Source: a virus. From it: a stretch of 38,658 nucleotides of DNA. The notes below the pieces were generated by a model. The model was not told the DNA's origin, searched no databases, and was given only the letters and a program-made list of their open reading frames with translations. Below are positions 9,494 through 13,921 of this stretch, piece after piece. The DNA lies in the UHGV virus genome UHGV-0206453; one strand, written 5' to 3'. The translations under genes and the position numbers were made by a program. Every line of letters starts with the position of its first letter. The first letter of the stretch is position 1.

Positions 9494-10113
9494 GACTCGA
9501 AAGCGTAGCTAAATTTCACTCGCCAAAAAGCCCGATGATGAGCGACTCACCACGGGCTACGGCTTCTGACTCTCTTTCCGGTACTGATGTGATGGCTGCT
9601 ATGGGGATGGCGCAATCACAAGCCGGATTCGGAATGGCTGCATTCTGTGGTAAGCATGAACTCATCCAGAACGACAAACAAAAGGCTATCAACTATCTGA
9701 TGCAATTTGCACACAAGGTATCGGGGAAATACCGTGGTGTGGCAAAGCTCGAAGGAAATACTAAGGCAAAGGTACTGCAAGTGCTCGCAACATTCGCTTA
9801 TGCGGATTATTGCCGTAGTGCCGCGACGCCTGGCGCAAGATGCAGAGATTGTCACGGTACAGGCCGTGCGGTTGATATAGCAAAAACAGAGCAGTGGGGG
9901 AGAGTTGTTGAGAAAGAATGCGGAAGATGCAAAGGTGTCGGCTATTCAAGGATGCCAGCAAGCGCCGCATATCGCGCTGTGACGATGCTAATCCCAAACC
10001 TTACTCAACCCACCTGGTCACGCACTGTTAAGCCGCTGTATGACGCTCTGGTGGTGCAATGCCACAAAGAAGAGTCAATCGCAGACAACATTTTGAATGC
10101 GGTCACACGTTAG
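9490..10113 (+). CDS. Q: late antiterminator Q (lambda type)
   Basis: 207 aa; near-identical to lambda Q as remembered (MRLESVAKFHSPKSPMMSDSPRATASD...). Confidence 0.95.
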   Translation: MRLESVAKFHSPKSPMMSDSPRATASDSLSGTDVMAAMGMAQSQAGFGMAAFCGKHELIQNDKQKAINYLMQFAHKVSGKYRGVAKLEGNTKAKVLQVLATFAYADYCRSAATPGARCRDCHGTGRAVDIAKTEQWGRVVEKECGRCKGVGYSRMPASAAYRAVTMLIPNLTQPTWSRTVKPLYDALVVQCHKEESIADNILNAVTR

Positions 10114-10155
10114 CGGCATGATTGCCACGGATGGCAACATCTTTACGGCATGATA

Positions 10156-10193
10156 TTGACTTTTTGAATAAAGTTGGGTAAATTTGACCCAAG
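10156..10193 (+). promoter_or_regulatory. late promoter pR' with Q-utilisation region
   Basis: -35 TTGACT, 18-bp spacer, -10 TAAATT, identical to lambda pR' core; homology to lambda breaks a few bases after the start site. Confidence 0.75.
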
Positions 10194-10384
10194 AATGGCA
10201 GATTTATATCCGTTCACATTCTTTCATCTTTTACCCACCTCATCTTTAAGTTCTAAGCGCACTGACATGCGCATCATAAACTCGAGAGCACATAGGAATA
10301 GAGCCTGAGAAATATCGCTTTTGGCGACTTCTCTCGTGGTGATATTTCTATGTCAGCAGGCTCTAATATCTATGTGGTTCGCCT

Positions 10385-10876
10385 ATGTTAAAACGTGAAG
10401 ATGCATTGAGACTTTTTAATTACAATCCAGATACTGGAATTCTTACATGGAAGAATCCACCTCGGTCCTCTAGATTTATCTATGGCGCTGTTGTTGGCTA
10501 TAAAACAAATGGATATCTGCAGGTAAAACTTTATGGAATGCGGCTATATGTCCATAGAATTGCATGGCTGATGGTTTACAATGATTGGCCAACCGATGTG
10601 ATTGACCATATTAATGGTGATAGGTCTGATAACCGGATAGCCAATCTTCGTGTTGTTACTAACACTCAAAACTCATGGAACAGCAAGATGAGGAAAAATA
10701 ATTCATCTGGTGTGAAGGGGGTGACTTTTAATTCTGCTGCAAACAAGTGGGTTGGAAGAATTAGGGTCAATGGTAAAAGGATTCATGTAGGGTGTTTTGA
10801 CGATATCGAGGAGGCTAGAAAGGCAATGGAAAATGCCAGGATAAAATATCATGGTGAATTCTCCAGTATGGGATAG
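10385..10876 (+). CDS. HNH endonuclease with C-terminal AP2-type DNA-binding domain
   Basis: 163 aa; HNH core HRIAWLMVYNDWPTDVIDHINGDRSDNRIANL; AP2-like SGVKGVTFNSAANKWVGRIRVNGKRIHVGCFDDIEEA. Confidence 0.85.
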   Translation: MLKREDALRLFNYNPDTGILTWKNPPRSSRFIYGAVVGYKTNGYLQVKLYGMRLYVHRIAWLMVYNDWPTDVIDHINGDRSDNRIANLRVVTNTQNSWNSKMRKNNSSGVKGVTFNSAANKWVGRIRVNGKRIHVGCFDDIEEARKAMENARIKYHGEFSSMG

Positions 10877-11009
10877 ATGGGTTAATTCGCTCGTTGTGGT
10901 AGTGAGATAAAAAGAGGCGGCGCTTACTACCGATTCCGCCTAGTTGGTCACTTCGACGTATCGTCTGGAACTCCAACCATCGCAGGCTGAGAGGTCTGTA
11001 AAATGCAAT

Positions 11010-11067
11010 CCCGAAACAGTTCGCAGGTAATAGTTAGAGCCTGCATAACGGTTTCGGGATTTTTTAT
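11010..11067 (+). terminator. tR' (6S RNA) terminator
   Basis: CCCGAAAC...GTTTCGGG hairpin followed by ATTTTTTAT, same sequence as lambda tR'. Confidence 0.8.
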
Positions 11068-11472
11068 ATCTGCACAGCAGGTAAGAGCATTGAGTCGATA
11101 ATCGTGAAGAGTCGGCGAGCCTGGTTAGCCAGTGCTCTTTCCGTTGTGCTGAATTAAGCGAATACCGGAAGCAGAACCGGATCACCAAATGCGTACAGGC
11201 GTCATCGCCGCCCAGCAACAGCACAACCCAAACTGAGCCGTAGCCACTGGCTATCCTGAATTCATCAGTGATAGTTACGCTGCGGACTTCTACACATGAC
11301 CTCGTGAAAGCGGGTGGCATGAGGTTGCGCTAACAACCTCCTGCCGTTTTGCCCGTGCATATCGGTCACGAACAAATCTGATTACTAAACACAGTAGCCT
11401 GGATTTGTTCTATCAGTAATCGACCATATTCCTAATTAAATAGAGCAAATCCCCTCAATGAAGGGGTAGAGC

Positions 11473-11676
11473 ATGTACCGTATGGACAAAATCAGAGAAT
11501 GGTTCAGTTACAGCTTCGGAGGACTGACTGCGATGGGTGGCATTCTCTCCCTGAATGACTGGGCTGTCATCATTGGTATTCTTTGTACTGTCGGCACATT
11601 TGGCATCAACTGGTACTACAAGCGCAAAGAGCGCGAGGACAGATTGAATGGCAATGTCACCGGCACTACGAAATAG
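11473..11676 (+). CDS. class II holin with dual-start motif
   Basis: 67 aa; MYRMDK dual Met start, two predicted TM segments, charged C-terminus; immediately precedes endolysin. Confidence 0.7.
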
Positions 11677-11918
11677 CGTAATAGCGGCGATAAGTGGCGG
11701 GGCTATTGCTATAGCATCAGTGTTAATCACTGGCCCAAGTGGTAACGATGGTCTGGAAGGTGTCAGCTACATACCATACAAAGATATTGTTGGTGTATGG
11801 ACTGTATGTCACGGGCATACAGGAAAATAGACTGGCCCCCTGAATCTCCAGACAACCAATATCACTTATTTAAGTGATAGTCTTAATACTAGTTTTTAGA
11901 CTAGTCATTGGAGAGCAG

Positions 11919-12284
11919 ATGATTGATGTCTTAGGACCGGAGAAACGCAGACGGCGTACTACACAGGAAAAGATCGCTATTGTTCAGCAGAGTTTTGAAC
12001 CGGGAATGACAGTCTCCCTTGTTGCCCGGCAACACGGTGTGGCAGCCAGCCAGTTATTTCTCTGGCGCAAGCAATACCAGGAGGGAAGTCTTACTGCTGT
12101 GGCCGCAGGAGAACAGGTCGTTCCTGCCTCTGAACTTGCTGCCGCCATGAAGCAGATTAAAGAACTCCAGCGCCTGCTCGGCAAAAAAACGATGGAAAAT
12201 GAACTCCTTAAAGAAGCCGTTGAATATGGGCGTGCAAAAAAGTGGATAGCGCACGCGCCCTTATTGCCCGGGGATGGGGAGTAA
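11919..12284 (+). CDS. insC: IS2 transposase OrfA (InsC)
   Basis: [53 protein letters not shown]... matches IS2 InsC. Confidence 0.9.
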
Positions 12285-13147
12285 GCTTAGTCAGCCGTTG
12301 TCTCCGGGTGTCGCGTGCGCAGTTGCACGTCATTCTCAGACGAACCGATGACTGGAAAGATGGTCGCCGCAGCCGTCACTCAGATGATACGGATGTGCTT
12401 CTCCGTATACACCATGTTATCGGAGAGCTGCCCACATATGGTTATCGTCGGGTATGGGCGCTGCTTCGCAGACAGGCCGAACTTGATGGTATGCCTGCGA
12501 TCAATGCCAAACGTATTTACCGGATCATGCGCCAGAATGCGCTGTTGCTTGAGCGAAAACCCGCTGTACCGCCATCGAAACGGGCACATACCGGCAGAGT
12601 GGCTGTGAAAGAAAGTAATCAGCGATGGTGCTCTGACGGGTTCGAGTTCCGCTGTGATAACGGAGAAAAACTGCGAGTCACGTTCGCGCTGGACTGCTGT
12701 GACCGTGAGGCACTGCACTGGGCGGTCACTACGGGCGGCTTCAACAGTGAAACAGTACAGGACGTCATGCTGGGAGCGGTGGAACGCCGTTTCGGCAACG
12801 AGCTTCCGGCGTCTCCAGTAGAGTGGCTGACGGATAATGGTTCATGCTACCGGGCTAATGAAACACGGCAGTTTGCCCGGATGTTGGGGCTTGAACCGAA
12901 GAACACGGCGGTGCGGAGTCCGGAGAGTAACGGCATAGCAGAGAGCTTCGTGAAAACGATAAAGCGTGACTACATCAGTGTCATGCCCAAACCAGACGGG
13001 TTAACGGCAGCAAAGAACCTTGCAGAGGCATTCGAGCATTATAACGAATGGCATCCGCATAGTGCACTGGGTTATCGCTCGCCACGGGAATATCTACGGC
13101 AGCAAGCCAGTAATGGGTTAAGTGATAACAGGTGTCTGGAAATATAG
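12242..13147 (+). CDS. insD: IS2 transposase OrfB (InsD), expressed as InsCD via -1 frameshift
   Basis: 301-aa ORF overlapping insC in -1 frame; DDE integrase-type sequence matching IS2 InsD. Confidence 0.9.
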
Positions 13148-13483
13148 GGGCAAATCCAGAAAAGACATCATGCTCGGTAAAACGTATACCAAAGCAGAAT
13201 GCAAAACACTCTTGAATAAAGACCTTGCCACGGTCGCCAGACAAATTAACCCGTACATCAAAGTCGATATACCGGAAACAACGCGCGGCGCTCTTTACTC
13301 ATTCGTTTACAACGTGGGTGCTGGCAATTTCAGAACATCGACGCTTCTTCGCAAAATAAACCAGGGCGATATCAAAGGCGCATGTGATCAGCTACGTCGC
13401 TGGACATACGCTGGCGGTAAGCAATGGAAAGGGCTGATGACTCGCCGTGAGATTGAGCGTGAAGTCTGTTTGTGGGGGCAACA

Positions 13484-13921
13484 ATGAGCAGAGTAACCGC
13501 GATTATCTCCGCTCTGGTTATCTGCATCATCGTCTGTCTGTCATGGGCTGTTAATCATTACCGTGATAACGCCATCGCCTACAAAGAGCAACGTGATAAA
13601 GCCACATCCACAATCGCTGACATGCAGAAGCGTCAACGTGATGTAGCAGAACTTGACGCCAGATACACAAAGGAGCTTGCTGATGCTAACGCGACTATCG
13701 AAAGTCTCCGTGCTGATGTTTCTGCTGGTCGTAAGCGCCTGCAAGTCGCCGCCACCTGTGCAAAGTCAACGACCGGAGCCAGCGGCATGGGCAATGGAGA
13801 AAGCCCAAGACTTACAGCAGATGCTGAACTCAATTATTACCGTCTCCGAAGTGGAATCGACAGGATAACCGCTCAGGTTAACTACCTGCAGGAATACATC
13901 AGGACGCAATGCCTTCGATGA
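13484..13921 (+). CDS. Rz: i-spanin Rz
   Basis: ATG overlaps endolysin stop; [31 protein letters not shown]... matches lambda Rz. Confidence 0.85.
13683..13868 (+). CDS. Rz1: o-spanin Rz1 (lipoprotein) embedded in +1 frame of Rz
   Basis: Within ORF 13653..13868; signal peptide ending in lipobox LVVSAC, proline-rich mature part. Confidence 0.75.

Follow-up and report, generated by a model that had tools for sequence, protein, structure and literature searches.

An insert directly behind the late promoter of UHGV-0206453

The virus genome UHGV-0206453 (38,658 nucleotides, referred to here as the window) carries an insert directly behind its lambda-type late promoter pR'. The insert consists of a 5' spacer, a structured leader RNA and an open reading frame (ORF) for an HNH endonuclease with an AP2 domain; it is preceded by the gene for a lambda-type Q antiterminator and followed by the lambda 6S leader with the terminator tR' (Table 1). 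An earlier note on this DNA had claimed that a lambda match through pR' is broken by about 680 bp of non-lambda DNA and resumes at the stop codon of the HNH gene. Alignments to lambda (L001) and HK446 (L002) bore this out, since the left-side homology extended to ...GACCCAAGAATGG with its end at 10198 and the right-side homology restarted at ATGGGTTAATTCGCTCG (10877), the next nucleotide after the TAG stop codon at 10874-10876. The insert is 682 bp long and absent from both phages, and as ATGG is found at both junctions (left copy 10195-10198), its ends are fixed only to within 4 nt and it can be written as 10199-10880 or equally as 10195-10876. By homology to the numbering of lambda pR', the insertion lies between +8 and +9 of the transcript, within the first transcribed nucleotides as the earlier note had it. 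The GC content of the insert is 40%, compared to 50% in Q and 48% in the 6S region; the insert had been called AT-rich, and it is indeed below its flanks, but only moderately AT-rich.

Table 1. Features at the pR' locus of the window, with the evidence for each
Feature	Position	Strand	Evidence or remark
Lambda-type Q antiterminator gene, 207 aa	9490..10113	+	Pfam Antiterm 1.4e-56
pR' late promoter, TTGACT (10156)-17 nt-TAAATT (10179)	10156..10184	+	Promoter scan, lambda/HK446 alignments
+1 to +8 of pR' transcript, AAGAATGG = left junction	10191..10198	+	Lambda/HK446 alignments
5' spacer of cassette, 58 nt	10199..10256	+	Poorly conserved, fold z = -0.46
Double-pseudoknot leader RNA, 120 nt	10257..10376	+	Alignments A3, A5, A9; RNAalifold for nested helices
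Hairpin H0	10257-10272	+	
Pseudoknot PK2, H0 loop CUGAC with bulge GUCAG	10262-10266 with 10352-10356	+	Covariation
Pseudoknot PK1, CGAGAG with CUCUCG in apical loop	10283-10288 with 10331-10336	+	Covariation
Outer helix	10289-10295 with 10370-10376	+	
Middle helix	10300-10307 with 10357-10364	+	
Inner helix	10308-10318 with 10339-10349	+	
HNH_3 + AP2 endonuclease gene, 163 aa	10385..10876	+	Pfam HNH_3 5.7e-17
Lambda 6S leader, restarting from original +5/+9, to tR' terminator	10877..11066	+	Lambda/HK446 alignments
TAGAGCCTG, second copy of a 9-mer, in 6S/tR' region	11035..11043	+	First copy in leader, 10299-10307

The promoter part was kept from an allele of the lambda/HK446 type, and its spacer contains the Q-binding element. 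In lambda, the sequence AACGAT makes up +1 to +6 and is followed by a GGG discriminator-like sequence and a sigma70-dependent pause at +16 (PMC4005639). The -10-like sigma70 pause element reads AAGAAT in the window, as opposed to AACGAT or AACAAT in alleles that are empty. On the right-hand side, the 6S/tR' flank is about 97-99% identical to lambda and HK446, and tR' is intact, with the stem CCCGAAAC at 11010 and GTTTCGGG at 11051 followed by a T run. As judged by sequence, tR' would now be the terminator of the pR'-HNH transcript.

A terminator scan found no plus-strand terminator between pR' and the ORF or within the insert. The only plus-strand promoter-like sites were pR' itself and one inside the ORF (10406-10435), with no excess over shuffled sequences, so that in these scans the cassette had neither the promoter nor the terminator of its own that marks a lambdoid moron, an autonomous cargo unit. 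Minus-strand terminator-like and promoter-like hits in the region were rejected as they were no more common than in shuffled sequence. A 44-aa ORF at 10174-10308 was also rejected: it would begin, with TTG, ahead of the first transcribed nucleotide, and homologous cassettes show no conservation of this region. The 5' spacer holds a weak AAGAATG/CATTCTT hairpin followed by a T-rich run, and its sequence varies among the cassettes L004-L009; it may be a decayed terminator.

The ORF encodes an I-HmuI-like endonuclease with an AP2 domain

The protein is named 'HNH endonuclease' in RefSeq (WP_000919140.1). In addition to HNH_3, its C-terminal module matched the Pfam AP2 domain at 33.6 bits against a cut-off of 33.3 and is thus barely above the threshold. 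In an alignment of 34 homologues (A4), diverged down to 37% identity, residues D74, H75, N77, D82, N83, R84, N87, R89 and N99 were invariant, and among these are the catalytic residues D74, H75, N87 and N99. A profile built from the same alignment matched I-HmuI (PDB 1u3e, 9.3e-7), with the DH...N...N residues aligned, and plant AP2 domains (WRI1, 3e-8). The predicted product is thus an I-HmuI-like HNH_3 + AP2 endonuclease with its catalytic residues intact, and the earlier assignment of a 163-aa HNH endonuclease with an AP2 domain stands. Homologues, all below 60% identity, are encoded in more than 3,800 phage records, where HNH homing endonuclease is a common annotation.

The protein could instead be a DNA-binding regulator built around the AP2 domain, similar to the AP2-containing phage repressors (CasPR proteins), and not an active nuclease. 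AP2 domains are also found in non-nuclease phage DNA-binding proteins (bioRxiv 10.64898/2026.02.23.707548), and other genes behind the same leader RNA (see below) encode DNA-binding proteins without a nuclease domain. However, 34 homologues that range down to 37% identity all keep the catalytic D-H...N...N residues, which implies selection for catalysis and makes a pure regulator very unlikely. The sequence GGCGGCG (10916-10922), which lies within the conserved 6S leader at a distance of 36 nt beyond the insertion point, is the complement of the core of the plant AP2 'GCC box'; that it would be contacted by the AP2 domain is pure speculation.

Empty, filled and decayed alleles of the site

When the insert and its flanks were compared to phage records, the insert was present in 0 of the 116 matching records; only the flanks were matched, and no record covered more than 29% of the query. 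A sensitive BLAST search with the window leader alone gave no match among 50,697 phage records. In contrast to these phage records, 16 of the about 1,230 genomes with matching Q/pR' flanks, out of 5,426 complete E. coli genomes searched, did contain the insert, and all 16 copies are annotated as intact in RefSeq; strain AR_0058 (NZ_CP021689) is one of the 16. The insert is thus sporadically present at one precise site, with about 1,200 empty and 16 filled E. coli genomes and with junctions fixed within 4 nt. A comparison of related prophages, which the earlier note had proposed, therefore showed an abundance of empty alleles, so that the segment is not uniformly ancestral. The clearest case was a near-isogenic pair of an empty (L093) and a filled (L094) prophage that have in common Q, the 6S region, tRNA-Asn, tRNA-Thr and the holin gene. 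The two tRNA genes lie between tR' and the holin gene (1450-1605 in L093 and 13021-13176 in L094) and are not found in the window; their presence in some prophages of the lambda-Q type is a further variation in the cargo of the Q-S region.

Nucleotide diversity among the 16 filled alleles was 2-6% in Q, 3.6% in the promoter, 0-0.1% in the leader, 0.4-1.9% in the ORF and 0.8% in the first 100 nt to the right of the cassette. Beyond Q, the cassette and the near flanks, the genomes with a filled allele were mosaic and unrelated. The diversity pattern and the mosaic genomes together indicate that the cassette is younger and more uniform than its surroundings and resides in many different prophages. 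The AAGAAT variant of the pause element was found in all filled alleles, in a relative with 86% identity (L004) and in the scar alleles described below, and no empty allele with AAGAAT was found among those compared. This marker, along with the lower diversity on the right (0.8%) than on the left (3.6%), is compatible with co-conversion and also with simple linkage.

The nearest relatives of the protein were P0002 (86% identity), P0003 (74%), P0004 (66%), P0006 (62%, Xenorhabdus bovienii) and P0007 (56%), and each of them is encoded 247-271 nt downstream of the stop codon of a Q-family antiterminator. In the Xenorhabdus members, the cassette is placed just behind a short pR'-proximal terminator. 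In the locus L005, the promoter is of the ES18/SI8 (P22-like) type and the homology to those cassette-free phages breaks directly after the -10 element. The sequence after its HNH stop codon, GTTACTAGTTACTTAGCGGC, resembles by eye GTTACTGACTTCGTTGGCGG, which follows AACGATGG in SI8; this is only suggestive of a cassette at the same insertion point as in the window. More distant HNH homologues, with at most 48% identity, were encoded at other sites, between head and tail genes or between portal and terminase genes, and the leader RNA was absent from these. Such a pattern, with each clade at a site of its own, is as expected for a family of free-standing homing genes.

Decayed copies of the E. 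coli-type cassette were found in IMG/VR, where two were frameshifted (46 aa) and two had an in-frame internal deletion (54 aa), all with intact leaders. In addition, five viral contigs (L014, L030, L033, L050 and L057) and 3 of the 5,426 E. coli genomes carried scar alleles that lack the HNH gene. Their junction is at TAGAGCCTG, where a stretch of pR', spacer and the leader's 5' half passes directly into the 3' part of tR', and the 5' spacer contains an extra segment of 47 nt and a T6 run. Such a course, from gain through degeneration to loss, is what is expected of a homing endonuclease gene.

The relatives and the scars also bear on the view that the segment is ancestral to this type of pR' and was deleted in lambda and most relatives, with no insertion and no mobility. 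The place directly after Q is kept in homologues down to 56% identity, and the scar alleles show that deletion occurs. Nevertheless, the deletion scars that are known do not resemble the empty allele, and one precise junction, which corresponds to the functional lambda qut sequence, is common to about 1,200 empty alleles. The base composition of the insert is foreign, and the cassette is less diverse than the flanking Q gene. We consider an ancestral segment to be highly improbable.

The leader folds into a conserved double pseudoknot

In a set of six diverged cassettes, conservation was higher in the 120 nt ahead of the start codon than in the ORF. The window sequence 10257-10390 gave a predicted fold of -50.3 kcal/mol (z = -4.77), and the 5' stretch 10191-10260 was unstructured (z = -0.46), so that the structured part is the 3' 120 nt of the 186-nt leader. 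The earlier note had described a structured leader of roughly 190 bp with several inverted repeats; this applies to the 3' 120 nt but not to the 5' part, and the fold is a conserved double pseudoknot and not a set of generic repeats. RNAalifold independently gave the hairpin H0 and a long three-part hairpin. The two pseudoknots connect the H0 loop with a 7-nt bulge (PK2) and the 5' tail with the apical loop (PK1).

From the viral collection, pattern scans and then a covariance model provided 14 and later 24 distinct versions of the leader RNA. In the proposed structure, 99.1% of cells were paired, compared to 30-49% in controls with slid partners, and 7 pairs had changed on both sides. In the 24-sequence alignment (A9), 16 of the 32 nested pairs had changed on both sides, a count that is to be read with the alignment having been fitted to the model and the sequences falling in few clades. 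At least six compensatory variants were found for PK2 (CUGACR/YGUCAG, CUAGCA/UGCUAG, UCGCA/UGCGA, UCUCA/UGAGA, UUCAC/GUGAA and UCACCCG/UGGGUGA) and at least five for PK1 (CGAGAG/CUCUCG, CAUGAG/CUCAUG, CCAAGAG/UUCUUGG, CCCGAG/CUCGGG and CCAGAG/CUCUGG). The invariant unpaired stretches include GGUGGCGACC and UGAGAA/UUUCU. An alternative pairing of CATAGGAATA with TATTTCTATG was dropped in favour of the nested helices, which are predicted by RNAalifold and covary.

Searches of Rfam 15 gave no match at E <= 1 for the window copy (9500-12000 searched) and none at the gathering score for the divergent copies in L033, L077 and L084. No description of the family, or of an RNA motif near rha, KilA-N or HNH genes, was found in the literature searched. 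The comparison of the aligned copies thus makes it a well-supported proposal that the leader RNA is a structured family without an Rfam entry. Known ribozymes and riboswitches were rejected on the lack of an Rfam match, and a CUGAGAA that by eye looks hammerhead-like does not fit the hammerhead core. A group I intron was rejected because neither Intron_gpI nor any Rfam family matched at E <= 1 in 9500-12000 and because the lambda sequence resumes right after the ORF stop. A nut-like reading, in which the upstream CAUCUUUAA resembles boxA and H0 resembles P22 boxB by eye, was dropped since these elements are not conserved in L005, L006 and the members preceded by a terminator.

The leader RNA precedes several types of late-operon genes

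The genes behind the leader RNA encoded, according to Pfam, Phage_pRha with or without an ORF11CD3 tail, P22_AR_N with ORF11CD3, KilA-N with ORF11CD3, and KilA-N with P63C. A further lineage of HNH-AP2 proteins, with 44% identity to that of the window, and one protein of 193 aa without a Pfam match (L033/L086) were also encoded there. None of these genes provides a metabolic hint at an effector for the leader. The Rha, KilA-N and P22_AR_N proteins of L014, L094, L077 and L084 have in common a C-terminal ORF11CD3 domain, the function of which is not known, and differ by swapped N-terminal DNA-binding domains. In near-identical Xenorhabdus phages, the slot between the endolysin and Rz genes holds either the RNA with Rha or the RNA with HNH. 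By BLAST, one Rha-linked copy matched 150 phage records, including 73 Stx2a-converting and 4 Stx1a-converting phages as well as phages of Salmonella, Escherichia (HK106), Shigella (Sf101), Klebsiella, Enterobacter and Hafnia. The family was also present in GC-rich phages. The link between the window leader and known phages was seen only with the covariance model and not with BLAST, and whole-collection scans with a strict three-block motif gave one true extra locus (Xenorhabdus khoisanae); the other five hits were rejected as chance matches in GC-rich coding DNA.

A broader covariance model detected a divergent copy directly upstream of rha in P22 (L103, 39508-39631, 43.5 bits) and no copy in lambda. 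The annotated start of P22 rha (39575) lies inside the RNA motif, and the real start codon is probably downstream. In SPN3UB (L096), a minus-strand 'hypothetical protein', gp70, is annotated over the motif (1541-1660) and is probably spurious. In the Klebsiella phage ST15-VIM1phi2.1 (L098), the RNA with Rha (1530-1648) is located between tail-region genes (DUF3383 and transglycosylase) and not after the lysis genes, from which it follows that the unit can occupy several slots in the late operon.

Many HNH-filled prophages carry the leader RNA twice, ahead of HNH and, in a divergent form, ahead of Rha or KilA-N after Rz; the window has only the HNH-linked copy. The HNH-linked E. coli leader was closer to the Xenorhabdus type than to the Rha-linked E. 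coli type; this affinity and the low GC content point to a foreign, Xenorhabdus-like origin of the cassette.

In all members examined, the 3' end of the leader RNA is 8-13 nt before the start codon, and an AGG or AAGG forms the 3' end of the outer helix, with 8-11 nt between these purines and the AUG. Every copy is located 10-20 nt behind an intrinsic terminator, except for the pR'-proximal type of E. coli and L004-L006. Instead of gating translation, the RNA might serve in processing or stabilisation, as a ribozyme that cleaves itself, as a target of RNase or as a protective 5' fold that provides the cargo mRNA with its own 5' end after the terminator, or it might act on the polymerase like put, by antitermination or anti-pausing. 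The compact double-pseudoknot fold with its many invariant unpaired nucleotides, the consistent place behind a terminator and the portability between cargo genes would all agree with this. No known ribozyme family was matched, however, and antitermination of the preceding terminator is impossible for a leader that comes after it and not before it. In every member the 3' end is right next to the start codon, as is typical for control at the level of translation. We regard a processing or polymerase-acting RNA as rather unlikely.

A proposed model of homing into pR' and a gated leader

Homing endonuclease genes normally target conserved coding sequence. The cassette fits a free-standing homing endonuclease gene aimed instead at the conserved sequence for the sigma70-dependent pause and Q loading. 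We propose, as the probable reading, that the cassette is a mobile three-part unit of the 58-nt spacer, the double-pseudoknot RNA and the I-HmuI-like nuclease, which would home into pR' and be controlled by a gated leader. The nuclease would nick or cut cassette-free pR' around AACGATGG^GTTAAT in co-resident or incoming lambdoid phages, and repair of the cut would copy the cassette in, with exclusion of competitors as a side effect. Q should still be able to load, as the Q-binding element and the -10-like pause element (AAGAAT, then GG) are retained. When +17 to +36 of lambda pR' was replaced, the pause and the modification by Q still occurred (PMC4005639).

pR' is constitutive and its transcription is normally stopped at tR' (PMC7547250). 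In a lysogen, a constitutive transcript of about 876 nt would therefore run from pR' through HNH to tR', in place of the 194-nt 6S RNA. The folded leader would hold the Shine-Dalgarno-like purines in its basal helix and thereby limit translation of a potentially toxic nuclease. We infer that the leader RNA may serve as a translational gate. The earlier note had predicted transcription of the gene in lysogens, and this remains a reasonable inference as pR' is constitutive and no terminator was found before the ORF, but translation need not follow because the predicted leader puts the Shine-Dalgarno-like purines in a helix.

Several observations weigh against this model or parts of it. The Shine-Dalgarno-like sequence in the window is weak (GUGG) and only 2-3 nt of it are paired, so that the sequestration would be partial, and the limits of the A9 counts given above apply to the fold itself. 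The same leader RNA is found ahead of non-nuclease cargo, and the unit of leader and gene is evidently mobile without HNH. In the filled allele, everything from +9 onward is replaced, including the native pause site at +16. Furthermore, no isolated, plaque-forming phage with a filled allele is present in the phage collection, so that the compatibility of the cassette with Q function is a prediction. Finally, a single ancient insertion that was spread by ordinary homologous recombination with the Q/pR' module would also fit the data.

The nuclease could also be mainly a weapon by which the prophage excludes competitors, with spread as a secondary effect. It would be made at a low level from pR' in the lysogen and cut pR' of cassette-free superinfecting lambdoid phages, thereby blocking their late genes. 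The gene indeed precedes tR', and the scan showed no terminator that would separate it from the constitutive promoter (PMC7547250). The presumed target of the nuclease is the Q-loading site, an essential sequence that is conserved across about 1,200 E. coli prophages, and 16 of 16 RefSeq copies of the gene are annotated as intact. On the other hand, with a folded leader and a weak Shine-Dalgarno-like sequence, much translation in lysogens seems unlikely, degenerate copies exist, and the Xenorhabdus-type phages carry the same clade behind a terminator, where it would be expressed late only. Exclusion as the main role is thus a minority view, with perhaps a quarter of the weight, and it is compatible with homing.

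We favour homing into pR' and consider the cassette to be, most plausibly, a free-standing homing gene of the HNH kind whose target site, a regulatory one, is unusual. The main interpretation in the earlier note, that of a free-standing homing endonuclease or a nuclease co-opted for exclusion, is thus reasonable. Of greater importance in the insert is the leader RNA, as its family is widespread in lambdoid late operons. A broader proposal, which we offer only tentatively, is that the leader founds a new functional class of RNA (a double-pseudoknot riboswitch, ribozyme or polymerase-sensing element) that controls toxic mobile DNA-binding genes (rha, kilA-N, ant-like and HNH) in lambdoid late operons, including those of Stx phages and P22, while HNH homes into the Q-loading site and would be the first homing endonuclease known to be directed at an antitermination control element and not at a coding sequence.

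If the sigma70-pause/Q-loading site is the target, essential regulatory DNA can be a homing site too. With everything from +9 replaced, the cassette is a natural experiment on which parts of qut are dispensable. The leader RNA, present in at least 150 sequenced phages, gives a concrete starting point for the long-standing question of what keeps late genes of the rha type from doing harm. It also adds a new candidate riboswitch or ribozyme, one that occurs in easily manipulated model systems. The overlaps with the RNA also correct the annotation of the P22 rha start codon and the SPN3UB 'hypothetical protein'.

Other features of the window

An IS2-like element of 1,331 bp (11828-13158, with ORFs that have HTH_Tnp_1 and rve domains) splits the endolysin gene of the window into an N-terminal Phage_lysozyme part (11648-11830) and a C-terminal part (13122-13487). 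Because of this interruption, the prophage should be lysis-defective.

Comparison with known systems

I-HmuI of phage SPO1 (PDB 1U3E) and the HNH_3 family of phage homing endonucleases, to which HNH-AP2 genes such as those of the Xanthomonas phages Xp10 and Xop411 (PMC2248197) belong, resemble the window gene in the HNH beta-beta-alpha-metal motif, with D74/H75 and the downstream Asn residues aligned, in a C-terminal AP2 module and in a small size of about 160-175 aa. I-HmuI resides inside a group I intron in a protein-coding gene, whereas the window gene is free-standing, in an untranslated regulatory leader, and is preceded by its own structured RNA leader.

The seg and mob genes of T-even phages are free-standing homing endonuclease genes, and RNA hairpins provide translational control of the I-TevI type. 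The cassette resembles seg and mob in its intergenic location, presence/absence polymorphism and decayed copies, and in expression that is tied to an operon and would be restrained by mRNA structure near the ribosome-binding site. In contrast to these genes, which lie between protein-coding genes of virulent phages, the cassette splits the promoter-proximal pause and Q-loading region of a temperate phage. Its RNA is also not a simple hairpin of the T-even kind but a conserved 120-nt double pseudoknot that is common to non-nuclease genes. The lariat-capping ribozyme GIR1 is part of a eukaryotic twin-ribozyme intron, where it precedes the ORF for the homing endonuclease I-DirI. The likeness, in that a homing endonuclease ORF is directly preceded by a pseudoknotted RNA which would condition its mRNA, is a functional analogy only, as the leader RNA has no relationship to GIR1 in sequence or in Rfam.

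The cassette is similar to Q-S cargo ('moron') genes such as stx, and to the RNAs made between pR' and tR' (lambda 6S and StxS; PMC7547250), in its neighbourhood between Q and the lysis genes and in its dependence on pR'. The earlier note had gone further and likened its transcription in lysogens to that of stx; that analogy is flawed, as stx is downstream of tR' and needs Q (PMC7547250), whereas the HNH gene is upstream of tR' and inside the former 6S RNA.

A parallel for the leader is P22 rha, with its divergent member of the same RNA family directly upstream, and leaders of this family also precede Rha or KilA-N genes in Stx, Salmonella, Klebsiella and Hafnia phages. In IHF-deficient hosts, phage growth suffers from the toxicity of the late-operon rha gene of P22 and phi80 (Henthorn & Friedman 1995, as summarised in PMC4936722). 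As P22 rha is deleterious when misregulated (PMC4936722), a need for tight control of such cargo genes as a class would fit, and no RNA element for rha has been reported in the literature searched. The P22-type units encode Phage_pRha or KilA-N with an ORF11CD3 tail and are located after Rz, behind a terminator; in the window, by contrast, the cargo is a nuclease and is placed at the promoter.

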